In this document: in pieces, positions 1-28,488 of the stretch
How positions within the stretch are numbered: position 1 is the stretch's first letter
How the letters are laid out: each line of letters opens with the position of its first letter
Origin: Promethearchaeota archaeon
GTDB lineage: Archaea; Asgardarchaeota; Lokiarchaeia; Sigyniarchaeales; SOKP01
NCBI GenBank assembly: GCA_030606485.1
Contig: JAUWGH010000009.1
Coordinates: 30,001 to 62,000, forward strand
Direction: 5' to 3'
Length of the DNA stretch: 32,000 bases
Notes under the pieces: model-generated
What the model saw: only the letters and a program-made list of their open reading frames with translations
Database searches by the model: none
What the model was told of the DNA's origin: nothing
Position numbers and translations under genes: made by a program

Positions 1-1494
1 GATTATCAAGAAGTTATTCTTCCAGAGATCCCATGGGGTGAAATGCTTGCAGATATAAGTAATTGGACGCCACTCCCTTTTACGCATGGGATCGAGATGG
101 AGCTTATAATCTGTGATGATGATGGGAATTATCCTCCTGGTGATGAAATGGTTTTTAGAATGAAAGAAATTGTTAAAGAATCTATAAAAATAATGAATGA
201 AATTATCTATGAGGGGCGAGAGGATTTTTTACCAATGCCTGATTATATTCGAGGGAAAATCATGCAAGCTCCCTTTGGAAAGGATGATATCGAAAAAGGG
301 CATGTAATGAATATTTCATATAATCTTCAAGGAACCGAATTAAATATTGATAGTTTTGGAAGAGATGGAAATGTCACTGCCATTACTTATATTTTAGAAT
401 TAGTCACTCCCCCCTGTGAATACGTCGAAGAATTAGCTTATTGGTCCTCAACATTATTTTTATTGGCAAAAAAAACACTTCCCAGAGATTTGCATATAGT
501 AGCTTCTGCCATAAATCCTACATCAAAAGAATATCAGAGAGGTTTATCGCAAGCAGATCATCATCATTTAGGTGATTTTAGTTCCGAATTAGAAAAAATG
601 CAAATTTATTGTATGATAAGAAATTTCATACCTCATCTTATTGCATTATCAACTAATTCCCCTATTATGAATAATAGGCCTACAGATGTTATCAAAATAA
701 TCAATAATAGAATAACTGCTCCTAACTGTGTTCGTTCTTTAAGATTAAAATATAATTTAACTATGTTGTCCAGTAACGATCCCAATTTTTTTATGCCTTA
801 TCTTAGTGAAGGTGGTGAAAAAGGGCTTAATTACTTTTTACAAGTAGTTAATAAAGCTAGTAGAGAAGATGGACGATTTCAAGATATTTTTCCATTTACT
901 GATTGGGGAACTATTGAAATAAGAGCAATGGATGCACAGATTTCAATTTGTAGAAGAATTGGATTAGGATTACTTGTTCAAGCACTATGTTATAAAGCTA
1001 GAAAATTATATCAAAACAAACAATGGGTTCCAGATGCAGGTTCTGAAACACTTGCCTTTAATCGTGCGAGCGTAATTAACAGAGGGTTAATCGCCCTATT
1101 TAAACCAATAAATCTAACAAAGGAAACACTAGTAGAATATGATCCTGAATTTGCTGAAGCATATCTTGGACCTGATGATAATCCTAATCGCTATATGTTT
1201 CAAGCAGTTCAAAGGATGTTCATATATCTTAAACCGGAATTGAAAGAATTGGGTTTTTTATATTCTCCTTTTTTAAAGCCACTCTTACAATCAGTTTTTG
1301 GAAATGTTTCATATGCTGAACCCCCAATAACTGAAGCAGAATATCAATTAAGTCTTTTTCAGTATAAAATAGATAATGACCAATTTCCAGATGTTCTTGA
1401 AGATTTAATCTATTTTACTATTGAATATTGTCAAGATCCCTTAAATCAGCCTTTAACGGGAACTTTAATTCTACCGAAAGAAATGAGAGAATAA
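1..1494 (+). CDS. Glutamate-cysteine ligase family 2 (GCS2/YbdK-like) carboxylate-amine ligase; probably extends past the left edge
   Basis: GCS2-like motifs THGIEMELII, ELVTPPC, DHHHLG, LIALSTNSP, TIEIRAMDAQ. The frame is open from base 1 (DYQEVILPEIPWGE-M), so the ATG at 43 may be internal. Confidence 0.8.
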   Translation, partial: DYQEVILPEIPWGEMLADISNWTPLPFTHGIEMELIICDDDGNYPPGDEMVFRMKEIVKESIKIMNEIIYEGREDFLPMPDYIRGKIMQAPFGKDDIEKGHVMNISYNLQGTELNIDSFGRDGNVTAITYILELVTPPCEYVEELAYWSSTLFLLAKKTLPRDLHIVASAINPTSKEYQRGLSQADHHHLGDFSSELEKMQIYCMIRNFIPHLIALSTNSPIMNNRPTDVIKIINNRITAPNCVRSLRLKYNLTMLSSNDPNFFMPYLSEGGEKGLNYFLQVVNKASREDGRFQDIFPFTDWGTIEIRAMDAQISICRRIGLGLLVQALCYKARKLYQNKQWVPDAGSETLAFNRASVINRGLIALFKPINLTKETLVEYDPEFAEAYLGPDDNPNRYMFQAVQRMFIYLKPELKELGFLYSPFLKPLLQSVFGNVSYAEPPITEAEYQLSLFQYKIDNDQFPDVLEDLIYFTIEYCQDPLNQPLTGTLILPKEMRE

Positions 1495-1513: not shown

Positions 1514-3073
1514 ATGTTAACTGTTAAAATTGAAAGCACAAAAAGAACACATATAAAAAATTTATTTGTTATAGATGCACATTCACACATTGGCGAAGAT
1601 GTAGATGGAGCCACAATGATGAATCCTCTTGCTCCTGGTTCTGGAACTTTTGATTTCTGGGCAAATGTACAAGCAAAATTAATTGAAGAATGGAATAAAA
1701 CAGGAGAAAAAACTTTCCAAACTATATTAGACGGTGAATCAGTTAAATTAACTTTCGATTTTGAACCTATACCTTTTATTAAAAAAACTTTTGAAAATTT
1801 ACAAACGTTAAATGGAAATTTTTCGGATATTAAAGAAAAAATAAGATATGCTACATTTATTGACCAAGCTGTAGTTTTTCCCTTTCAGGATACTTTTAGA
1901 AATAAGCGACCAGAAGCCATGTATCGCGCAAGTAATATTAATACATCAAGATTCACAACACGTTTTCCATTTTCATTTAAATTGATTGGATATTGTCGTG
2001 TTAACCCAATGGAAGGTGATAAAGCGGTAAATGAAGTTAAATATGGTAATGAAGTTTTAGGTCTAAGAGGGTTAAAACTGCATCCTCGATCTGAAGGCTA
2101 TATTGATCATGTAAATACACAAAAAACGATTAATGTCTTAATTGAGGCCGCAAAACATTCGATGCCTACTCTTTTTGATACTAGAGGAAGGCAAACTATC
2201 CTAGATATACGAGATCTTGTAACTAACACGCGTAATATAATACAAAAATCACATCCAGAACTATTATCCCATCTTAAAGTCATAATAGGTCATTGTGCCC
2301 AAGGGAACGTTGATGATTATGAAGTCTATGACGCAATAATACAACCAAATACAGTTGGAGAATTATCAATGCTTCATGGTTCAGGAGCAGGAAATTTCTT
2401 TAAAAGTTTTAGAAATTGGTATATAAAAAATAATAAAGAAAAAATCACTAGAAAAAAATGGTCTGAATTTTTGCTTTATGGCTCTGATTATCCATATTTT
2501 GGGGATGTCCACGCTGAGAAGTTAATAATTTATATTATCAATAAACAATTTTTTGATTCTGGTGGAACCTTAAAGGATGTCGAAAATATTTTAGGATTGA
2601 ACCTTATTAAACTTCTACCAGAATATAATTTACCTCAAATAGAGAAAAATAATGTAATGGTTAAATCGACTCTTATACCAAATATCCAATTGGGCCAAGT
2701 TAAACCTCAAGATAATATACCGTTAAACATTGGCACAAAAATAATCGCCAAACTATTATCTGATAACACAATTGACATCTCTAAGCTATGTTTCCAATTT
2801 AAAGAATCTTATGAAAATTTTAATAATGAAGTACTATTGAAAACGGTTTCTAAAACATCACCAAATAAAACAACCAATTTATTGTTCATGAATTTACTTC
2901 AAAATCAACTTGCAATCCTCACTCCTCTTAAAAAGGATGTAAAATGGAATAAATTTGGATATAAATACTTCAATATTGAAGATCATGAGCTTTTTAATTC
3001 AGTCCTTAGCAATAGCTATCCCACTAACGACATTAACCAAGCAACACATATAATCTCTCAAATATTTCAATAA
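1514..3073 (+). CDS. Amidohydrolase_2 family metal-dependent hydrolase (TIM barrel) with an extra C-terminal domain of about 150 aa
   Basis: IDAHSH, GLKLHP, IIGHC and GSDYPY metal-ligand motifs; 19 bp downstream of the GCS2 gene. Confidence 0.85.
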   Translation: MLTVKIESTKRTHIKNLFVIDAHSHIGEDVDGATMMNPLAPGSGTFDFWANVQAKLIEEWNKTGEKTFQTILDGESVKLTFDFEPIPFIKKTFENLQTLNGNFSDIKEKIRYATFIDQAVVFPFQDTFRNKRPEAMYRASNINTSRFTTRFPFSFKLIGYCRVNPMEGDKAVNEVKYGNEVLGLRGLKLHPRSEGYIDHVNTQKTINVLIEAAKHSMPTLFDTRGRQTILDIRDLVTNTRNIIQKSHPELLSHLKVIIGHCAQGNVDDYEVYDAIIQPNTVGELSMLHGSGAGNFFKSFRNWYIKNNKEKITRKKWSEFLLYGSDYPYFGDVHAEKLIIYIINKQFFDSGGTLKDVENILGLNLIKLLPEYNLPQIEKNNVMVKSTLIPNIQLGQVKPQDNIPLNIGTKIIAKLLSDNTIDISKLCFQFKESYENFNNEVLLKTVSKTSPNKTTNLLFMNLLQNQLAILTPLKKDVKWNKFGYKYFNIEDHELFNSVLSNSYPTNDINQATHIISQIFQ

Positions 3074-3202: not shown

Positions 3203-4231
3203 CTATTCTTTTTTTAATTCTTTTAATTTTTTTTCCTTATCCTTATCAATAAAGGTTTTTTGAAGAAATTCTTCTTTAATTTGTTCAATTTCTTTAGATT
3301 TTTCCAGTTGAGCTTTTAATTGTAAAATTTTCTCCTTCTCTTTTATGAAGAATTCTAAATATTTTTTTTGTTTATCTTTTAGCTCTTTAATTAATTGATT
3401 AATCTTAGGAATTTCAGTATCCCAATTGATTTCTTTAAATTTTTCAATTGCATGTTGATATTTTTCCAAAGCTTCATTAAATTGGTTTTTTTCTTCGAGA
3501 TTAGATGCTTCACCTAATAAATCGTATGCTTCTGAACTTAATTTTTCTTCTTTTTTCTTTTGTTGCTGAAAAATATCAAATTTATGCTTCTTCATTTCTG
3601 CGGACATTTTTCGGAAATCTTGACGTTGCATGAGAAATTCTTTCTCTTTTTCTATTATCTCTTGTCTCATCCTTTCTTCTTTCATTTTAGCTTCCCATTG
3701 TCTTAAAATGACCTCTTTTTTTTCATTTAATTCCTTAATCAATATATGAATTTTTGGAATTTCAGTTAACCAATTGATTTCTTTAAATTTTTCTATTGCT
3801 AACATATATTTCTCCAGAGACTGATCAAATTGATTGGATTGGACTAAAATTGACCCTTTTTCTAAGAGATTATATGCTTCTGCACTTATCGCTTCTTCTT
3901 TTTTTCGTTTTCTCTCAAACTCAGCCAATTGTTCTTCTTTTGTTAAAATTACTTTTTCAATAACTTCACTTTCTTGTTCTACTTTTTGAAGATATTGTTC
4001 CTGCTTATTGCTTGCTTCATCCAATAGTTTTTCAACCTTTTCAACCTCATTTTCAAAACCACCAATATTCTTCATTAATTTAATTGCATTTTTATAATAG
4101 TTGATACCTTCAATGAATCTATTTAAATCAACTAATTGAATCCCCTTTTTAATTAATATGAACAATTGCTCTAAGGTGTTATCCTCAGACCTTTCAGAAT
4201 TATTATTATTAAAATCTTTAGAATTTTTCAA
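3203..4231 (-). CDS. TPR-like helical-repeat / coiled-coil protein
   Basis: Three TPR-like helical hairpins (e.g. EAYNLLEKG..QFDQSLEKYMLAIEKFKEINW) separated by K/E-rich coiled coils. Confidence 0.65.
   Translation of the reverse strand: MKNSKDFNNNNSERSEDNTLEQLFILIKKGIQLVDLNRFIEGINYYKNAIKLMKNIGGFENEVEKVEKLLDEASNKQEQYLQKVEQESEVIEKVILTKEEQLAEFERKRKKEEAISAEAYNLLEKGSILVQSNQFDQSLEKYMLAIEKFKEINWLTEIPKIHILIKELNEKKEVILRQWEAKMKEERMRQEIIEKEKEFLMQRQDFRKMSAEMKKHKFDIFQQQKKKEEKLSSEAYDLLGEASNLEEKNQFNEALEKYQHAIEKFKEINWDTEIPKINQLIKELKDKQKKYLEFFIKEKEKILQLKAQLEKSKEIEQIKEEFLQKTFIDKDKEKKLKELKKE
3408..3800. repeat. Intragenic duplication, period 348 bp (116 aa)
   Basis: ggaatttcagtatcccaattgatttctttaaatttttcaattgc at 3408 vs ggaatttcagttaaccaattgatttctttaaatttttctattgc at 3756. 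Confidence 0.85.
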
Positions 4232-9109: not shown

Positions 9110-9931
9110 ATGGTACAAGTCTTTAAAATTTTAGATACTGGGGAAACTGAAGAAATTAAAGATACTGGGAGTCCAATTAAGGATATTCTAGACAGTTCTG
9201 AAGTATTTATTATAATCAGCGAACATCGTGATAAAACAATTTGGTTATGGAAAGGTGCAAAATCATCGGTCAGAAGAAAATTTATAGGAGCCCAGAAGTC
9301 GCAGGACATTCGAGGACAAGTTGGAATGCAATATTCAGTGTTTCCCGTAGACCAAGGCGAGGAAAAACCCGATATCATAAAAGCTATTGGCGGCAATCCT
9401 AGTGAAGGATTTGCGAGAGAAATTAAAGATGATAGTGATGGAATAGAGACTCATCCTTTAAGGCAAAAACAAATTTTTGAACCACCAAGACCAGCAGAAG
9501 GGATGAAAATCGGACCGTCACCTCAGGCTCAAGCTGGAATAGGACCTTTATATACTGGAGAGGAATCCATGTCTCGATATTTAGAACCAACTACTGTTGA
9601 TTTTAAATTTGTGATGCAAAAATTAGAAGAAATTGCTACTCCAGAAGGGTTCGAACGAGAATTGATAATTATTGGCTCCCAAACCTTTGCAGTTATCGAA
9701 AAAGTTCAAACATTTTTGGGCAGAAAACAAGTTGAGAAGGTTATAGAGCGTATTAGTTCAATCCCCGAAGGTGTTTTTTTTGCTGAAGGTTATACGCCTC
9801 GAATTTTATCAGAAAATGGAAAAGTATTGGCCATAGAATTTTTAAAAAAATCAAATAGTAATGAAAATAATAGTCCTAATAAAAAGAACATCTTGAAAAA
9901 TCAAATAAAGCAACAATTAGGTTCATCTTAA
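9110..9931 (+). CDS. Single gelsolin-homology domain protein with Pro-rich linker and a C-terminal domain of unknown function
   Basis: LDSSEVFIII...IWLWKGAKSSVRRKFIG...VDQGEE matches the gelsolin repeat pattern (L.S.D.FIL...I..W.G..SS....QG.E). Confidence 0.8.
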   Translation: MVQVFKILDTGETEEIKDTGSPIKDILDSSEVFIIISEHRDKTIWLWKGAKSSVRRKFIGAQKSQDIRGQVGMQYSVFPVDQGEEKPDIIKAIGGNPSEGFAREIKDDSDGIETHPLRQKQIFEPPRPAEGMKIGPSPQAQAGIGPLYTGEESMSRYLEPTTVDFKFVMQKLEEIATPEGFERELIIIGSQTFAVIEKVQTFLGRKQVEKVIERISSIPEGVFFAEGYTPRILSENGKVLAIEFLKKSNSNENNSPNKKNILKNQIKQQLGSS

Positions 9932-10028: not shown

Positions 10029-10421
10029 ATGAGCGATTTAACACCACAAGAAGCTCAGAATTTATCCGAGTTCTTAGGAAATATCACCGAACATACTGAT
10101 TTAGAAGCATTGGCGTTAGTTACACGAGAAGGTTTAAGACTTGCTTTTTCATGCGTATCGGGATATAATATCAATCCGGATTTATTTTCGTCTATGAGCG
10201 CTGTAGTTATGAAAAGCGGGGAAGATGCTATTCAAGGACTTGAATATAATAATTTACTTGAAGTAATTCTTCGAGGCGATAACGCCTTTATAATTTTAAG
10301 CAACGCTGGACGATTTTTCCTAATGGGTGCAAGTAGAGAGATTAAAGATTTAGGAAAAATAGTTTCGGTTTTTAGATATTATGCTAAAGAAATCTCTAAA
10401 AGGTATCCAAAATTATCTTAA
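10029..10421 (+). CDS. Roadblock/LC7 (MglB-like) protein
   Basis: 130 aa; LEALALVTREGLRLA, DLFSSMSAVVMKSG, LLEVILRGDNAFIIL, LGKIVSVFRYYAKEI follow the roadblock fold pattern. Confidence 0.8.
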   Translation: MSDLTPQEAQNLSEFLGNITEHTDLEALALVTREGLRLAFSCVSGYNINPDLFSSMSAVVMKSGEDAIQGLEYNNLLEVILRGDNAFIILSNAGRFFLMGASREIKDLGKIVSVFRYYAKEISKRYPKLS

Positions 10422-10678: not shown

Positions 10679-12844
10679 ATGTCTAAAGAACCATTAATAT
10701 TATTTGTTGAGGTTTTTGATTCAGATTCTGAGAAAGTAATTACCTCTAATGAGAATCTTGAAAAATTGGGTGTTAAGACTGGAGATATAGTTGAAGTTAT
10801 AGATATGGATACAAATAAAACTATACCAGCATTTATTGAGGGCTCTCCGGATGTTTTAGAATTCGCCGGTAAATTTTCCAAAATAATAATAAACAATTTA
10901 AATTTTAAAGGAGTAGAATTAGGTATTCGAGTAAAAAGTGATATTAAAATCGTTCCTGAGCCCACTCCATCCAAAATAATTTCAGTCCCAGAAACCCCTT
11001 CCGCAGAAATAAAACCACCTAAAATTGAATTCGCAATAGGACAACCACAACCAACAACGCCTAAAATACCCACTTATGCACCTCCAAAACCAAAGGAACC
11101 AACTCCTGGAATTACTCCTCCACCCTCCCCACCTGGATTAACTCCAACCCCTCCACCGCCTTCACAACCATCACCAACATATGCACCTCCAAAACCACAA
11201 ATGCCAACACCTGGATTAACCCCCCCACCACAACCACCACAATTAGACCAATTAGGAATCCAACCAAATGGATTACCCAAAACTGAAATAACACCTACTT
11301 ACCCTAATCAAATTGATATATATGCTCTGCAGACTCAAAAAAGTGGAATAATTTTAACACCAAAAGTAGTCGATGATATTGAAGGAAGGGTTCAGTTAAG
11401 TGAAAATAATCTCAGAAAATTAGGATTAGGTGTAGGAATGTTAATTGCATGGGAAGATCCTTTGACACGATCTGTAGGTTCAGCGAGAATTTCTATGGGT
11501 CTTAATGTTACAGATAATCAAATCATAATGGATCAAAATACAAAGGAAGATACTAATATCCTCTCTGATCAAATTGTAGTTTATTCTACTGAACCACCCA
11601 TTCAGAAAATGGAGCAAATTTCCCTAGAAGTTAATTCAAAACCTGAACTTAATGGTTTTTGTCAAGTCAGCCCTAGGATAATGCATTCATTATCTGTGCA
11701 ACCTGGTGATATATTTGCTTTTGAAGACGAATTAACTGGCGCTATTGGAGCCGCAAAAGTTCAAATTAATGAAAGAATGCCTTCCAATCAAATTATTATT
11801 GATACTGAGATATTAGAAGCATCCGGAATCGGTAGTTATGAAGTTATTGTAAGGAAAAACCTAAGGCAAATTATAAATCTACAATCAATAAATTTAGGTA
11901 TAAGCCCAATTAAAGGAGAAAATATGTGGGAACTCGTAAGTACAATACGTAAAAGCGTTGATGCCTTAAAAAGTTGGCTTATGAATTATATAATATTTAA
12001 AGGAATTAAATTACGATGGAATGCAGCTAATATTGCATGTTCTGTCATTGATTGTATACCTGATTTGACAGGAGATATTTTTGCGCAAATAACTCCAGAT
12101 ACTACACTAAGCTTGAGTCCAACGGGGCTTATTCCGTTTAATGCAATATTAATTATTGACATTAGTAGGAGTATGATGGCGCGCGATGTAGAAATTAGAA
12201 ATATTGCTCCTGCAATCGAAGGAATTAAGGCAGCTATGTATTCCCCAGAAATTCAAGAATTTCTGAAGAAATTTAAGGAAGGTATATCAGTTCCACGTCG
12301 AATAGCAGCCGCTTTTGCAGCAGTTCTATTCTTAAGTGAGAAAGTTGGAAGAGGATTTGGAGAAAAAGTGAGTGTTATACGTTTTGCAGATGAATCTCAA
12401 GTATTACCCTTCCAAGGAGGGCTGTATATGGACTCTGCCAGCGGAGAAAAGGGAATTCTTGAAGATTGTGCTCGAATGATTGTTGATAGGATTGGAAACG
12501 CTTATGGTCAAGCAACAAATATGGGTGCCGCTATGCTTGCAGGAAGGGAAGTTCTCTACACATTTGAACAAATAAATCCTGATCAGCCAACTATGATAGT
12601 TATTTTGACTGATGGTGTTCCTACCGATGTAGATAATTTTCTTGAAGCTATTAAACAATTCAGTGAAAACCCAAATGTTGTAATATACATTGTAGGTCTA
12701 GGAAATCCTGATGATAAGTTAATGAATAGAGCTGCTAATTTATGCGGTGGAGAATACTTTAAACCTAATGATGCCGGGGAATTATTAATTTGGTATAGTA
12801 AACGCGCACGAGATTTAACAGTGAAACTTAAAGCTCATAAATAG
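10679..12844 (+). CDS. vWA-domain protein with three CDC48-N-like double-psi beta-barrel (DPBB) segments and a poly-Pro linker; no ATPase domain
   Basis: Complete MIDAS: IIDISRSM, ATNMG, ILTDG; also YIVGLG. DPBB-like segments: SNENLEKLGVKTGDIVEV, VQLSENNLRKLGLGVGMLI, CQVSPRIMHSLSVQPGDIFAF. No Walker A/B motif. Confidence 0.75.
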   Translation: MSKEPLILFVEVFDSDSEKVITSNENLEKLGVKTGDIVEVIDMDTNKTIPAFIEGSPDVLEFAGKFSKIIINNLNFKGVELGIRVKSDIKIVPEPTPSKIISVPETPSAEIKPPKIEFAIGQPQPTTPKIPTYAPPKPKEPTPGITPPPSPPGLTPTPPPPSQPSPTYAPPKPQMPTPGLTPPPQPPQLDQLGIQPNGLPKTEITPTYPNQIDIYALQTQKSGIILTPKVVDDIEGRVQLSENNLRKLGLGVGMLIAWEDPLTRSVGSARISMGLNVTDNQIIMDQNTKEDTNILSDQIVVYSTEPPIQKMEQISLEVNSKPELNGFCQVSPRIMHSLSVQPGDIFAFEDELTGAIGAAKVQINERMPSNQIIIDTEILEASGIGSYEVIVRKNLRQIINLQSINLGISPIKGENMWELVSTIRKSVDALKSWLMNYIIFKGIKLRWNAANIACSVIDCIPDLTGDIFAQITPDTTLSLSPTGLIPFNAILIIDISRSMMARDVEIRNIAPAIEGIKAAMYSPEIQEFLKKFKEGISVPRRIAAAFAAVLFLSEKVGRGFGEKVSVIRFADESQVLPFQGGLYMDSASGEKGILEDCARMIVDRIGNAYGQATNMGAAMLAGREVLYTFEQINPDQPTMIVILTDGVPTDVDNFLEAIKQFSENPNVVIYIVGLGNPDDKLMNRAANLCGGEYFKPNDAGELLIWYSKRARDLTVKLKAHK
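11075..11230 (+). repeat. Imperfect 105-bp (35 aa) duplication in the Pro-rich linker
   Basis: tatgcacctccaaaacca is identical at 11075 and 11180; PTYAPPKPKEPTPGITPPP vs PTYAPPKPQMPTPGLTPPP. Confidence 0.85.
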
Positions 12845-22692: not shown

Positions 22693-23313
22693 CTAGGCAG
22701 TTTCTTGCTCGGGCATTTCACCCTGAAGCTTCTTATAATGATTTAATACCCCTTGACGTGCAGCATAAACAAATCCCCGCTTCACATTAACTCCAGTAAT
22801 AGCTATCGTCTCATAGATTAGCGTTTGATTTAACTTTGCTTTATCAAGAACCTCACGAATTTTATTTATCTCTACAATATCTTCTAAATCCCGTTTATTT
22901 GCACAAACAACAAGTGGAACTTCCGCTGGGTCTGAAAAACTTTTAGAAATTAATCTATCTCCATAAAATTGTAATAATTCTTTTAAACTCCATATATTTT
23001 CTTCCCACTGGTCGATTAAACTGTCCCAAAAGAAGAGGATACAATCAGTTCCTTTGAGGACCGTTCGTCTCTGGAATTTGTGGCGTCTCTGGCCGGCGAC
23101 GGTATAAACTTGAAACACCACATTGCTTACTCGGGCTACTACTCTATCAAAGAACAATGTACGACCAGTTGGATCAGCTATCTGCTGCATATCACCTGAA
23201 GCAAGTCCCTCTTTCTTGTATACCCATTCTAAGGCAGTTGTTTTTCCTCCTAAAGATGGACCCCAGAATACAACTTTGAAAACCAGTGTTCCATCCCCGC
23301 GACGACTTGGAAT
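22693..23313 (-). CDS. Small GTPase, MglA-like/Ras superfamily; start lies upstream of the ORF-track call (probable ATT at 23313)
   Basis: G1 GPSLGGKTT (upstream of ATG 23190), G2 RTLFFD, G3 YTVAGQ, G4 ANKRD, G5 ETIA. In-frame TGA at 23343-23341; SD AGGAGAGG at 23328-23321. Confidence 0.9.
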   Translation of the reverse strand: MPSRRGDGTLVFKVVFWGPSLGGKTTALEWVYKKEGLASGDMQQIADPTGRTLFFDRVVARVSNVVFQVYTVAGQRRHKFQRRTVLKGTDCILFFWDSLIDQWEENIWSLKELLQFYGDRLISKSFSDPAEVPLVVCANKRDLEDIVEINKIREVLDKAKLNQTLIYETIAITGVNVKRGFVYAARQGVLNHYKKLQGEMPEQETA

Positions 23314-23541: not shown

Positions 23542-24146
23542 TTCTTCAGTTAATTCACCATACTTCTGCGTACTAATAACAAATAGATCTTAATAGTTGT
23601 ATTTCGGCAACGTTAGCTAATCGAGTGGTCTCTCTTCATCAATAAAAAAATATTCAAGGTGTCCATCGATAATAATTTATTTAATCATATTTAATGAACT
23701 GTTAAGAAACCTCTCAAATTTTTTATTGAAGATATCCGAGTGTGTTATACCTCCGTTCGAAAATTTCTGAGTCACAATCACTGTTTGTATTGTAAGTATA
23801 ATATTCACGGTTATTATAGAAATAAAAAGCACTCGAACCTAATTTATAGTCAAGATTTAAGTTATCAAAATCTATCCCAGTCATTGCATTGGCAACTAAA
23901 GTATTCGTATCTAGATTTATACTTAAAATATATGATAATGCACCCTAATATTTTATAATGGAGTTGCAATTAATGAATTAACGTTTTATACTACATCTTG
24001 TTGGTGAGTGATAAAAATTTTAAGAATAAAGATAACTTGTATTTAATAAACAAAAAAAGAAATCTTTATATGTTCAGACAAGAAAAATTAAATGAAATAA
24101 AATAAATTTAAATAAATTAAATTAAAAAAAAAAAAAATGAAATAAA

Positions 24147-24932
24147 ATGAGGAAAGGAATTACAGCAATAGTAATAATAGTTTGTATAGTAGCAGGGTTC
24201 GCTGCTGGATGGCTTTTTTCCGCATTTCTCCCGGGGCTAACACAAGTATCGCTAGTTGATCAGATTAAGGCGCGAGGTTATATCATTGTTGGAACTAGTT
24301 CTGATTGGCCACCCTTCGAGGTATTCAACACGACTACGCAAGAGTTGGAAGGCTTTGACATCGACATATCAGAATTGGTTGCAGCAGAACTCGGTGTTAC
24401 TGTTCAATGGAGCGACATGGACTTTGACTCACTGATAGGTGCTTGTACTGGAGGCACAATCGATATGGTTGCGGCTGCAATAATGGTCACACCAGAACGT
24501 GCAGAAGTTCTCGCGCATTCCGTGCCCTACATTCGTGTAAACGAATTAATCATCGTTAGAGGTGATTCAATCCTTACGATTACTAAATTAGAGGATTTAG
24601 CAGCTCTTCCGGCCAAATCAGTCGGCTGCCAATCGGGTACTACACAAGAGGACGAATTGATAGACGCTGGTGTAGATTATGCGTCATATGTTAGTGCTCT
24701 TTTGATGCTCGCCGACCTAGACGCTGGCGGTATCGATGTAGCATTCATAGACGAGCCAGTCTTAGGTCAGTATATGGCATACGGCTTCAAGTCCATTTTT
24801 AGCGTACCAGCTGAACCTACAGCGTTATGGTGTAAATGGGAAGAACCGGAATTAATGGCGGCGATCAATAAAGCCCTCCTTGAAGCCTATAAAGACGGGA
24901 CGATAGATGCTCTTATCGCAAAGTGGTTTTAG
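24147..24932 (+). CDS. Polar amino-acid ABC transporter substrate-binding protein (family 3) with N-terminal membrane anchor
   Basis: IVGTSSDWPPFE, GFDIDI, DFDSLI, VGCQSGTTQ, LIAKWF. Confidence 0.92.
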   Translation: MRKGITAIVIIVCIVAGFAAGWLFSAFLPGLTQVSLVDQIKARGYIIVGTSSDWPPFEVFNTTTQELEGFDIDISELVAAELGVTVQWSDMDFDSLIGACTGGTIDMVAAAIMVTPERAEVLAHSVPYIRVNELIIVRGDSILTITKLEDLAALPAKSVGCQSGTTQEDELIDAGVDYASYVSALLMLADLDAGGIDVAFIDEPVLGQYMAYGFKSIFSVPAEPTALWCKWEEPELMAAINKALLEAYKDGTIDALIAKWF

Positions 24933-24938
24933 GGGTGA

Positions 24939-25628
24939 TTGATGGTGGAGACGCCAGATCTCCCTTCTATTTTTTTTTATATTCTCGTGAATGGATTACC
25001 CTTAACCTTACTACTCACTGCCCTAGGTCTTTTGGGGGGCTTTTTCCTGGGTTTATCGCTGGCAATCATGCGCGTTTATGGAGGTAAAGACCTTGATTTG
25101 GTATCGAGCGGCTACGGGAAGGTATTGCGTGGCATCCCACTTTTGGTTTTGATCTACATCTTCGTCTTTGGAATACCTGGTATATTTTGGTTTATAGACC
25201 CACTTATGAGACCGCTTTTCGGCGTAATTTTGGCGCTTGCTCTTCGCAGTGGGGCTTACCAATCTCAGCTTTTTCGCGGGGCTATTTTATCCGTGGACCC
25301 GGGGCAGATGATGGCTGCTCGTGCGATGGGGATGAGCCAGTTCCAAGCTTTCCGACACATTGTGTTGCCCCAAGCCCTACGGCTGGCAATACCTAGCTGG
25401 TCTAACGAGTATGCGGTGGTCATCAAGGATTCGTCCTACGCCTACGCGGTTGGAATTATTGAGATGCTAAAGGTGGCATTTCGTGTATCTGCTAATTACC
25501 CACTGCTCTGGGCTCCAACGATGGGTGTTGTTGCGATTCTATACTTTATCTTTACTTATCCTATAACAAGGATATTTGGCGAACGACAAACCAAGAAACT
25601 TAAGAAGTTGGGAATGGGAGGTGGTTAG
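24939..25628 (+). CDS. Polar amino-acid ABC transporter permease (HisM/GlnP family)
   Basis: [49 protein letters not shown]. Confidence 0.92.
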
Positions 25629-25630
25629 AT

Positions 25631-26422
25631 ATCGTTAAATCTGTGCTACGTATAGTTGATGGTTGGAAGTCATATGGGGATTTACAGGTCCTTAAGGGAG
25701 TCTCATTCGAGGTGGGGGAGCAAGAGGTCAAGGTCATCTTTGGACCAAGTGGCTCTGGCAAGAGCACATTGCTTCGTTGCATCAACATGCTGGACCCACT
25801 AGACAAGGGTGAAGTACATCTCCGTGAACAGAATCTTATGGCACCTGGAATCAATCTTAATGCGATACGGGCGAGAATCGGCATGGTATTCCAACATTTT
25901 AATCTGTTCGCCCACCTTAAAGCGATAGATAATGTCAGTATCGGTCTTCGTCAGGTCAAAAAGCTACCAAAGGAGGAGGCTCGCGCAAAGGCATTGGAGA
26001 TGTTAAATCGTGTCAAGATGGCGGAGTGGGTTGATCACTATCCTGCACAACTATCCGGTGGCCAACAACAACGTGTGGGCATTGCACGTGCTTTGTCCAT
26101 GGAACCCGATGTAATTTTGTTTGACGAGCCTACATCTGCCTTGGATCCTGAACTGATAGGCGAAGTGCTTCAAGTGATGTTAGACATCGCTAAATCGGGT
26201 ACTACAATGATAGTCGTCACCCACGAAATGGGATTTGCTAGAGCCGTAGCATCAGAAATGCTCTTCCTCGATAATGGAGTCATTGTAGAACGGGGAACCC
26301 CCCAGCACTTCTTCGTCTCGCCCAAATCCGAGCGGGTAAAACAGTTTCTCAAACAGCTTGATATTTTATACGGAAGCCATAAAGAACTTCTGAAGCGGTC
26401 AAACGAGGAGGAAAGCAAGTAA
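25631..26422 (+). CDS. Polar amino-acid ABC transporter ATP-binding protein (GlnQ family); start ATC 25631 or GTG 25643
   Basis: [54 protein letters not shown]. Confidence 0.95.
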
Positions 26423-27198
26423 TGTTTCAAGTACTCCCTCAACCGATAGAGGATATTCTCCGTGTACTGGAGTACTGGGATCATATCCTCGCAGGGTTCC
26501 TAACTACGATGGAATTGTATGGAGGGGCGATTGTGATGGGCTTTTTCCTTGGTCTTCTGCTCGCTCTTCTCCGCCAGTATGGGGGGTTTATTATTTCACG
26601 GATTGCTACCGGGTACATTGAATTTATACGTGGTACACCCTTACTCGCGCAGTTGTTCTTCATTTACTTTCTCCCCTACAGCATGAATGCTATTTTAGAG
26701 GCACAAGGTCTTTTCCCCATACCTATTGGGAAGTGGAGTTTCCAAACCGACATTATAATCCTCGACCGGATTATCACTTACACAATCTTTGATCACCGAA
26801 TGCTTGTCGGTCTCCTCACGTTAGCTCTTAATAGTGCAGCCTATCAGGCTGAATACATCCGTGGAGCCATTAAATCTGTTGGGACCGGTCAATTATTAGC
26901 TGCCCAATCGCTGGGTATGTCTCGTCTGGCCAGTATTCGTCATGTCGTGTTACCACAGGCTCTGCGTCGTGTTATTCCTGCGTGGTCCAACGAAGCTGCT
27001 TATCTTCCGAAGTACACCGTTGTTGTATTTTTCATTGGAGTGGTGGACCTCTTTGGCAAGGCGCATTTTATCGTTGCAAATATTTTTCGCACACTCACCA
27101 CATATTGCATAATCGCTCTCATTTTTCTAGCTCTGATCACAATTATCTCCAAGGTACTAGACTTTGTCCACAAACGGACAAGTATTCCAGGTTTGTAG
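26422..27198 (+). CDS. Polar amino-acid ABC transporter permease (second)
   Basis: IRGTPLLAQL, SAAYQAEYIRGAIKSV..GQ..AA.SLGMS, LPQALRR; start overlaps the upstream stop (TAATG). Confidence 0.92.
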   Translation: MFQVLPQPIEDILRVLEYWDHILAGFLTTMELYGGAIVMGFFLGLLLALLRQYGGFIISRIATGYIEFIRGTPLLAQLFFIYFLPYSMNAILEAQGLFPIPIGKWSFQTDIIILDRIITYTIFDHRMLVGLLTLALNSAAYQAEYIRGAIKSVGTGQLLAAQSLGMSRLASIRHVVLPQALRRVIPAWSNEAAYLPKYTVVVFFIGVVDLFGKAHFIVANIFRTLTTYCIIALIFLALITIISKVLDFVHKRTSIPGL

Positions 27199-27507
27199 TT
27201 TGTCCAAGAATCTATTTACTATTAAACAGAATGAGCATACGCAGTTTATAGTTATCGATGTAATCTTAAAGATATTTCTAAATTTCAATATTTTAATTTT
27301 GAACCTTAAGATAAAATAAATAGCGATATGTTTGAAGATATGTTCTACCCAAATTTTATTATAAAATTAAAACCTGTAGTAAAGGGATTAATTTACAAAT
27401 ACCTTAACTTTCGATGATTTGTATTTGGAAAAAAATTTATAAGAAGTGAAATTGTTAGAGTTAATAATTAAGAAATAACTAAATCCATAATCAGATGGTG
27501 GTTTTAC

Positions 27508-28488
27508 ATATCTGAAATAATTACTCTCAAAAAAATCGAGGATGCACAAAAGAGAATCAGTGATTTTATCAAGAGAACACCTCTTATCTATTCGGAGTTT
27601 ATTAGTGAGCTATGTAATGGCACAGTCTATCTTAAGTTGGAGAACCAACAACTCACCAACGCTTTCAAGATACGAGGAGCATTTAACCTAATGATGCAAT
27701 TAAGTACAGAAGAGAGGTCTCGTGGTGTTGTTACCGCTTCATCAGGGAATCATGCATTGGCAGTAGCCTTAGCTGCAAAACATTTAGGCATCTTTGCCAT
27801 AATTGTAGTTCCGACGAATGTATCAAAAGCCAAGCTAAACAAGATGAAGGAGTATGATATCAAAGTTATTCAAGAAGGAGACTTCGAAGAGATCTATACA
27901 AAAGCAAGAGAGATATCTACCAGCGAGGGTCTAACCTACATCAGTTCGTACAATGATCTAGAGGTTATAGCAGGTCAAGGAACAATAGGTCTTGAAATCT
28001 ATGAAGAGATTGGACGGGTAGATTCAATCATTGTTCCTGTTGGTGGAGGAAGCTTGATTTCTGGTATTGCCATTGCAGTAAAATCTTTTAATCCTAATAC
28101 CAGGATAATAGGGGTTCAGACAGGGGGAGCTTCCACAATGTATGAGTCTTGGAAAGCTAGAAGAGTGGTAAGCGTCGAAGAGTATCATACATTAGCGGAA
28201 GGTCTATTGGGTGGTCTTGATCCCGAAGCTATCACCCTAGAATTGATACAAAAATATGTAGATGAGTTAGTCTTAGTAAAAGAGAGAAGTATTGAAGAAG
28301 CAATCCGCCTTTTATGGAAGAAAGAGGGGCAGATCGTTGAAGGAGCAGGAGCAACGACCATTGCCCATATTCTAGAAGAAAAACGAAAATTCGTAAAAAA
28401 GAAGGTGGTAGCCGTAGTGAGTGGGGGAAACATCGAAGACTCCTTATTTCAAGAGATTTTAAGTACAGAACAGACTAGTAAAGATTGA
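27508..28488 (+). CDS. PLP-dependent threonine/serine dehydratase (IlvA/TdcB/serine racemase family), no ACT domain; start upstream of the ORF track (probable ATA 27508)
   Basis: ITLKKIEDAQKRISDFIKRTPL...VYLKLENQQLTNAFKIRGA, TASSGNHA, AGQGTIGLEI, PVGGGSLISG, VVSGGNI. In-frame TAA at 27469-27471. Confidence 0.9.
   Translation: MSEIITLKKIEDAQKRISDFIKRTPLIYSEFISELCNGTVYLKLENQQLTNAFKIRGAFNLMMQLSTEERSRGVVTASSGNHALAVALAAKHLGIFAIIVVPTNVSKAKLNKMKEYDIKVIQEGDFEEIYTKAREISTSEGLTYISSYNDLEVIAGQGTIGLEIYEEIGRVDSIIVPVGGGSLISGIAIAVKSFNPNTRIIGVQTGGASTMYESWKARRVVSVEEYHTLAEGLLGGLDPEAITLELIQKYVDELVLVKERSIEEAIRLLWKKEGQIVEGAGATTIAHILEEKRKFVKKKVVAVVSGGNIEDSLFQEILSTEQTSKD

Follow-up and report, generated by a model that had tools for sequence, protein, structure and literature searches.

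The open reading frame (ORF) at positions 10679-12844 on the forward strand of the window, by which we mean the whole 32,000-nucleotide stretch of a Promethearchaeota archaeon genome analyzed here (contig JAUWGH010000009.1, positions 30,001 to 62,000; ~30% GC overall), encodes a 721-amino-acid protein that may well serve an undescribed ligase-hydrolase module as its docking subunit and whose N-terminal part, a putative tether, is specific to its order. This protein, hereafter the target, consists of binding-type domains only and is without a catalytic domain: three barrels of the Cdc48 N-domain type, a middle domain, and a vWA domain with an intact MIDAS (metal-ion-dependent adhesion site). 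It is the long form, found in a single Loki-type order, of an Asgard family of Cdc48N-vWA proteins that have no ATPase, and we see an even chance that these are docking proteins; no published description of the family was found in our literature search. The ORF is intact, its start position is common to its homologs, and the homologs are similar in length.

The family is small, with 286 clusters at E≤1e-3 out of 1.84 billion representative proteins, and it is seen almost only in Asgard metagenome-assembled genomes (MAGs); the source names of relatives include Thorarchaeota and Korarchaeota MAGs. A family member is encoded in 65 of 151 sampled Asgard genomes. Most members are ~410-500 amino acids long and match residues ~305-720 of the target, and all of the short relatives of ~430 amino acids begin at barrel C; the core of the family comprises barrel C, the middle domain, and the vWA domain with its MIDAS. 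The short forms can be aligned with this part of the target over their whole length, at 27-39% identity and with E values of 1e-35 to 1e-76. The long form is present in 40 of the 41 genomes sampled from the order, with 50-65% identity outside the genus of the target except in genus g7 (described below), and full-length matches of at least 62% identity were found in the 151-genome sample only in the target's own GTDB family. The target is single-copy in each genome, and the short forms account for up to three or four matches per genome. A distribution of the long form across all Asgard classes, which the source names of close homologs (Thor-, Hod-, and Heimdallarchaeota) would imply, was rejected, the long form being found in one GTDB order only; these names clash with the GTDB placement and were not relied on.

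The gene neighborhoods of the short forms were inspected at 12 loci from other Asgard families. An Amidohydro_2-like protein of ~500 amino acids is encoded next to the short form at nine of the 12 loci, and a protein of 1000-1200 amino acids with a YbdK/GCS2-type carboxylate-amine ligase domain at five. In addition, the hydrolase-like protein and the Cdc48N-vWA core are joined in a single chain in four proteins of ~870 amino acids; no other genomic signal points to physical association as strongly as a fusion does. The ligase relative flanking the short forms matches the YbdK structure 1r8g (1.5e-7), and the hydrolase-like protein L023:5682-7196 matches Pfam Amidohydro_2 (1.5e-18). Homologs of both genes occur near the long form, although there the enzymes are kilobases away, whereas those of the short proteins are adjacent or fused; the long form also differs from the short proteins in its additional barrels A and B, its Pro-rich tether, and its setting beside gelsolin and roadblock genes.

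Within the order, the ligase and hydrolase genes are invariably neighbors, and searches of 41 genomes recovered them in 36-37. In the window, the pair lies 7.6 kb upstream of the target gene, and the ligase has 40% identity to the ligase flanking short family members. In three genera of the sister family the gene order is YjeF-gelsolin-roadblock-target, followed by three unannotated genes and then by ligase-hydrolase, with a gap between target and ligase of 3.6-4.4 kb. All loci examined from the target's own family and from the sister family retain the YjeF-gelsolin-roadblock-target block; the YjeF-gelsolin-roadblock genes were not seen around the homolog from f29 (L049), whose match to the target covers residues 204-721 only.

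A natural contrast is provided by g7, a genus of the sister family represented by three genomes that are 87-93% complete, in none of which (0/3) the ligase and hydrolase-like genes were found with these queries. The g7 counterparts of the target (L031:8181-10436 and L050:7406-9712, both on the reverse strand) have only 23-28% identity to it. Their barrel C, middle, and vWA domains are ~20% identical to those of the target, compared with 45-72% in the other genera of the order, and the vWA domain is no longer matched by Pfam; T613 has been lost, and the DxSxS motif has become DxTxS. Barrel B retains 34-38% identity, the N-terminal barrel is still recognized, and the gelsolin and roadblock genes still adjoin the target counterpart, at normal identities. 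In the genus without a recovered enzyme pair it is the core that has decayed, with barrel B and the neighboring genes kept. The pattern is suggestive of a constraint on the core that depends on the ligase-hydrolase pair, and of a constraint on the order-specific N-terminal part that depends on something else, which g7 has kept.

Physical binding and the role of the tether are what we infer from the domains, fold, MIDAS, distribution, synteny, fusions, and decay. The core of barrel C, Nc-like middle domain, and MIDAS vWA domain is predicted to be a rigid module packed like the N-terminal domain (NTD) and SABA domain of DEPDC5/Iml1, and it would dock onto, or present a ligand to, a YbdK/GCS2-type amide-bond ligase and an Amidohydro_2-like hydrolase. 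In this scheme an acidic side chain on the partner would be gripped by the metal of the MIDAS, and a second binding surface would be provided by the cleft of the Cdc48-N domain. Barrel A, the Pro-rich tether of 70-154 amino acids, and barrel B would link this module to another partner, for which the always-adjacent roadblock and/or gelsolin proteins are the obvious candidates. Irrespective of any link to DEPDC5, the MIDAS docking protein would belong, together with an amide ligase and a metal hydrolase, to an undescribed, widely conserved gene set of Asgard archaea, and the long form is the only version tied to neighbors of cytoskeleton or GTPase type (gelsolin and roadblock). If the order includes cultured Loki-type strains, these hypotheses could be tested at the bench.

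Several observations weigh against a docking subunit for the ligase-hydrolase pair. In four genera of the own family the pair is 8-51 kb away from the target gene on the same contig, and in a fifth, g4, it is on other contigs. The window copy of the hydrolase-like protein (1514-3073) has no match to Pfam Amidohydro_2, and because of this it may be inactive. The adjacency of roadblock and gelsolin genes is weaker evidence than it appears, because such genes are very abundant in Asgard genomes. The co-variation in g7 is suggestive and falls short of proof because it represents a single evolutionary event. Finally, the maximum likelihood tree of the core is a polytomy of clades, in which a short-form paralog ancestral to the long form is not resolved.

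Table 1. Domains of the target protein and genes of the window associated with it (window coordinates).
Feature	Residues	Position	Strand	Remarks
Barrel A	1-92	10679..10954	+	Cdc48/VAT N-type double-psi beta-barrel; psi-loop motif GDIVEV at residue 35
Pro-rich disordered linker	93-204	10955..11290	+	AlphaFold2 (AF2) predicted local distance difference test (pLDDT) ~30
Barrel B	205-308	11291..11602	+	Second double-psi barrel; conserved PYPNxID motif before it; WEDPLTR loop
Barrel C	309-397	11603..11869	+	First domain of the family-wide core
Middle domain	398-482	11870..12124	+	beta-alpha-alpha-beta-beta-beta; occupies the position of the Cdc48 Nc subdomain
vWA domain	483-721	12125..12841	+	Pfam VWA above cut-off; MIDAS intact
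MIDAS residues	D494, S496, S498; T613; D645	12158-12172; 12515-12517; 12611-12613	+	
Roadblock/LC7 gene		10029..10421	+	Pfam Robl_LC7 above cut-off; matches Asgard roadblock 9jue, 7f8m; directly upstream of the target gene
Gelsolin-domain gene		9110..9931	+	Lokiarchaeota 2DGel (7whg) 5.5e-7; 1DGel (7c2f) 3.9e-6
YbdK/GCS2-type carboxylate-amine ligase		1..1494	+	Pfam GCS2 2.6e-5; 5' end upstream of the window; open frame of 588 amino acids
Amidohydro_2-like protein		1514..3073	+	38% identical to L023:5682-7196

The original prediction, made from the sequence alone without database searches, described three segments resembling double-psi beta-barrels (DPBBs), an intact MIDAS vWA domain, and an absence of Walker motifs, and all three descriptions were borne out. 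No Walker A/B motif or transmembrane segment was found in the 721-amino-acid protein, and it has no Pfam match to an AAA domain. The barrels are related to each other by self-BLAST (residues 233-301 with 323-391, E 1e-9; residues 2-38 with 220-256, E 0.006) and by hhalign of their sub-alignments (B-C, 96% probability over 84 columns; A-C, 74% over 82 columns; A-B, 57%). Barrel A, for which the first AF2 model gave a pLDDT of ~90 and which has a mean identity of 41% to 12 family representatives, superposes on the p97/CDC48 N domain with a VIA Z score of 13.5 (root mean square deviation (rmsd) 2.1 Å at 20% identity over 85 residues); for the VAT double-psi barrel the Z score is 12.1, and its Foldseek match extends over ~88 residues at ~2 Å. 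Barrel B has a pLDDT above 90 in the second model described below, and barrel C matches the alignment of the Cdc48 N domains of its own genome in hhalign at 95.7% probability (E 1e-8). The N-terminal segments did not turn out to be unrelated folds, which the original prediction had named as one result that would overturn it; they model as Cdc48-type barrels. At the level of Pfam, the CDC48_N match in the target is below the gathering score (23.6 bits vs 35.1, E 5.8e-5), and the target was not matched by CDC48_N in a six-frame search of the genome at E≤0.01. The DPBB fold of the Cdc48/p97/VAT N domain is common to all three target barrels, but in the target the barrel is triplicated, and the place of the D1 AAA domain is taken by a vWA domain. 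The linker between barrels A and B, 112 amino acids long in the target, is present in every homolog, though poorly aligned (24% identity), and among 91 homologs it varies from 70 to 154 amino acids with 24-41% Pro (median 37%). The same genome encodes three full Cdc48 paralogs, and also a stand-alone 192-amino-acid protein composed of CDC48_N and CDC48_2 only (L044, G000:C4:82634-83041).

The middle domain sits where Nc (CDC48_2) is found in Cdc48/p97/VAT, but its similarity to Nc is weak. Its secondary structure (residues 398-482) is taken from the model with a pLDDT of 95, and its W447 is invariant across the family. The likeness of residues 400-485 to the second subdomain of the CDC48 N domain, also proposed in the original prediction, has weak support. 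With barrel C and the middle domain taken together, the alignment to Cdc48 N runs collinearly into the Nc region over 132 columns, the score rising from 47 to 59, whereas the middle domain alone gives a non-significant 4.8% in hhalign against Cdc48 Nc. The likeness to Nc is a weak one because it is not significant for the middle domain alone and extends only together with barrel C.

The vWA domain is the most conserved part of the target, with a mean identity of 82% within the target's family and ~70% across the order. It is matched by Pfam VWA at 36.1 bits against a cut-off of 23.8, and its fold gives VIA Z scores of 22.9 with 4fx5, 22 with TFIIH p44, and 20 with Rpn10 and ArnB. Among 70 diverse relatives, every residue of the metal site (D494-x-S496-x-S498, T613, and D645) is either invariant or conserved in at least 90%. 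The protein ends ~10 residues past the domain. By sequence, the best matches are ArnB-like, 8s05_A (5.8e-14) and 5a8j (1.4e-11). ArnB/ArnE, Rpn10, TFIIH p44, and the Sec23/24 trunk have the vWA fold in common with the target (Z 17-22), and the MIDAS of ArnB is intact, as it is in the target. However, ArnB and Sec23/24 have a beta-sandwich or helical C-terminal domain that the target is without, ArnB has an FHA/Zn-finger partner gene for which the target has no equivalent, and the N-terminal Cdc48-type domains of the target are absent from ArnB, Rpn10, TFIIH p44, and Sec23/24.

To model the core as a whole, a first AF2 model based on 13 close homologs, which was poor in the C-terminal half (pLDDT 52 beyond residue 305), was replaced by a second model of residues 205-721 based on a 70-sequence alignment that included distant relatives. 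The second model has a mean pLDDT of 95 and a predicted template modeling score (pTM) of 0.83, and it accordingly predicts a single packed body made up of the barrels, middle domain, and vWA domain. In a Foldseek search of the PDB the top ranks are DEPDC5 and yeast Iml1/Sea1 (9xzy, 9o5e_H, 8ae6_W, 8adl_W, 9o5a_B, 9v0j_C, 7t3a_A, and 8fw5_A), with E values of 5e-13 to 6e-11 over ~420 columns and an rmsd of 8-10 Å. The p97 N-D1 entries rank next, with similar column counts but with an rmsd above 19 Å. In a separate alignment, residues 3-407 of DEPDC5, comprising NTD and SABA, are collinear with residues 222-702 of the target. A review of the SEA/GATOR complexes describes the NTD as NSF/Sec18-N-like and SABA as Sec23-like, and states that the domain combination of DEPDC5/Iml1 occurs in no other protein (PMC8534245). 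Given the Foldseek ranking and this domain description, the architecture, which the original prediction did not recognize from any characterized protein, does have a counterpart at the level of fold, the NTD and SABA domains of DEPDC5/Iml1.

The target shares with DEPDC5/Iml1 of GATOR1/SEACIT the order and packing of an NSF/Cdc48-N-like barrel followed by a domain like the Sec23 trunk or vWA, without an ATPase. It differs in having two extra barrels, a Pro-rich linker, and a canonical MIDAS, and in lacking the SHEN, DEP, and C-terminal (CTD) domains; the partners of DEPDC5/Iml1 are NPRL2/3, whereas the gene partners of the target are the ligase, hydrolase, gelsolin, and roadblock. The Pfam families IML1 (PF12257) and IML1_N (PF23013) did not match the target in six-frame genome searches at E≤10, are absent from its Pfam matches at E≤1, and are not among the 25 families most often matched by the 70 relatives in the alignment. 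Matched with the family profile, the DEPDC5 NTD gives an E value of 0.0018 and yeast Cdc48 N one of 4.4e-5, and any link between the family and DEPDC5/Iml1 at the sequence level is not specific. The target and DEPDC5/Iml1 are alike by fold only, and the likeness of fold is not a claim of common descent. We regard it as doubtful, though worth stating, that the Asgard Cdc48N-vWA family is the archaeal stock of the DEPDC5/Iml1 NTD and SABA domains, such that the scaffold of the eukaryotic amino-acid-sensing GATOR1 complex would have started out as a docking subunit for an amino-acid or amide ligase-hydrolase module, a subunit that in this Loki-type order would already be wired to roadblock. No prokaryotic relative of DEPDC5/Iml1 is reported in the literature that we searched, and for studies of eukaryogenesis an Asgard family built of these two domains would be a tangible candidate source of one GATOR1 subunit. 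A second chain of KICSTOR-GATOR1 structures, which is not DEPDC5 (9o5d_E, 9o5a_D), matches the middle and vWA domains of the target with Z 17 over 257 residues (chain residues 10-354). From its modeled length this chain may be SZT2.

The resemblance to DEPDC5 raises the alternative that the target is a functional analogue, perhaps a forerunner, of DEPDC5/Iml1, a scaffold for a small-GTPase regulator of the roadblock/longin type with the adjacent roadblock protein as its direct partner, in the way that NTD and SABA hold NPRL2/3 in GATOR1. We consider this unlikely. It would account for the Foldseek ranking, in which DEPDC5/Iml1 stands above p97 N-D1, for the collinearity of DEPDC5 3-407 with target 222-702, in a domain combination otherwise held to be unique (PMC8534245), and for the presence of a roadblock gene beside the target in the own- and sister-family loci examined, even in g7; Asgard archaea are, moreover, known to have NPRL2-like longins and Rag-like GTPases. 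However, the IML1 and IML1_N families are unmatched, the family profile fits the DEPDC5 NTD no better than it fits yeast Cdc48 N, and the vWA sequence is closest to the archaeal ArnB type. None of the 174 longer relatives has SHEN, DEP, or CTD additions, and no longer forms that carry them were found. No longin or GTPase gene is consistently adjacent (no longin gene was recognized beside the target, and the genome was not searched for NPRL2-like proteins), and the short members pair with enzymes rather than with GTPase regulators.

The partners also bear on two further proposals, each of which we judge quite improbable. MIDAS vWA domains often partner AAA+ proteins, as in the MoxR-vWA pairs and midasin, and the original prediction was of a stand-alone adaptor for an AAA+ or proteasome machine; in this form the target would serve an AAA+ unfoldase (Cdc48, PAN, or MoxR) or the proteasome by passing on substrates or ubiquitin-like proteins. 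The part of that prediction that stands up is the ATPase-free, stand-alone adaptor, the target having binding-type domains only and an intact MIDAS. Cdc48-N domains do bind UBX and ubiquitin-like folds, there are three Cdc48 paralogs in the genome that could be served, and in two metagenomic short members, P0174 and P0180, a disordered linker leads to a ubiquitin-like domain at the C terminus, which keeps a link to ubiquitin-like proteins open (the terminus of this domain is ...IPAS(T/H)AG, not GG). The AAA+ machine itself is what is missing: no AAA+ gene, including the MoxR type, was found in the window or in ~30 related loci examined. In Cdc48, adaptors bind to the N domain, which does not itself engage the ring from outside, and the fusions join the core to the hydrolase-like protein and never to an ATPase. 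With the ligase, the Amidohydro_2-like protein, gelsolin, and roadblock as the partners that are conserved or fused, the assignment to an AAA+ or proteasome client finds no support. By the same measure of probability, the target might be an actin-cytoskeleton factor whose Pro-rich tether recruits profilin or another Pro-binding module and which acts with the adjacent gelsolin and with the actin-related protein encoded downstream. The gelsolin gene upstream is a genuine homolog of Asgard gelsolins, the linker is indeed rich in Pro (median 37%), and an unrelated Asgard family has a gelsolin-like gene near a short-form/ligase cluster (L026). In the target's own GTDB family, a block of AbrB-like, coiled-coil, actin-related, and CHAT-like genes follows the target, but this block is specific to that family, being absent in the sister family, and in one genus it is split off by a 7-kb insertion. 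The target itself is without an actin-binding domain, and Loki-type profilins have been reported not to bind polyproline. We retain the docking subunit of a ligase-hydrolase module as the favored reading.

Some neighboring genes deserve mention in their own right. In each of the two families of the order, a gene directly upstream of the ligase (G000:C7:27889-29724, which lies just outside the window on its upstream side; L045:14107-16224) encodes a protein of ~620-705 amino acids without a Pfam match, possibly the third subunit of a ligase-hydrolase set. The possibility that this ~700-amino-acid protein is the split-off C-terminal half of the 1180-amino-acid ligases was rejected, as no BLAST similarity was found. 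The L026 gelsolin-like gene (L026:4544-5425, reverse strand) encodes two gelsolin-like domains and is 33% identical over 249 amino acids to that of the window; it lies 2.5 kb from a cluster of hydrolase, short Cdc48N-vWA protein, and ligase, with a coiled-coil gene between.

Elsewhere the window also holds an actin-related protein, small GTPases, and roadblock proteins, in addition to the lokiarchaeal-type gelsolin. An MIT/TPR-domain protein (3203-4231, reverse strand) and an Arf/Ras-like small GTPase (22693-23190, reverse strand) are not conserved beside the target. The stretch 24001-28000 has a GC content of 0.41-0.44, compared with ~0.30 elsewhere, and contains, by Pfam, an amino-acid-type ATP-binding cassette (ABC) transporter (SBP_bac_3, two permeases, and one ATPase); a gene for a pyridoxal phosphate (PLP)-dependent enzyme (27637-28488) overlaps its 3' end. 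The GC-rich composition suggests that this stretch may be acquired DNA.

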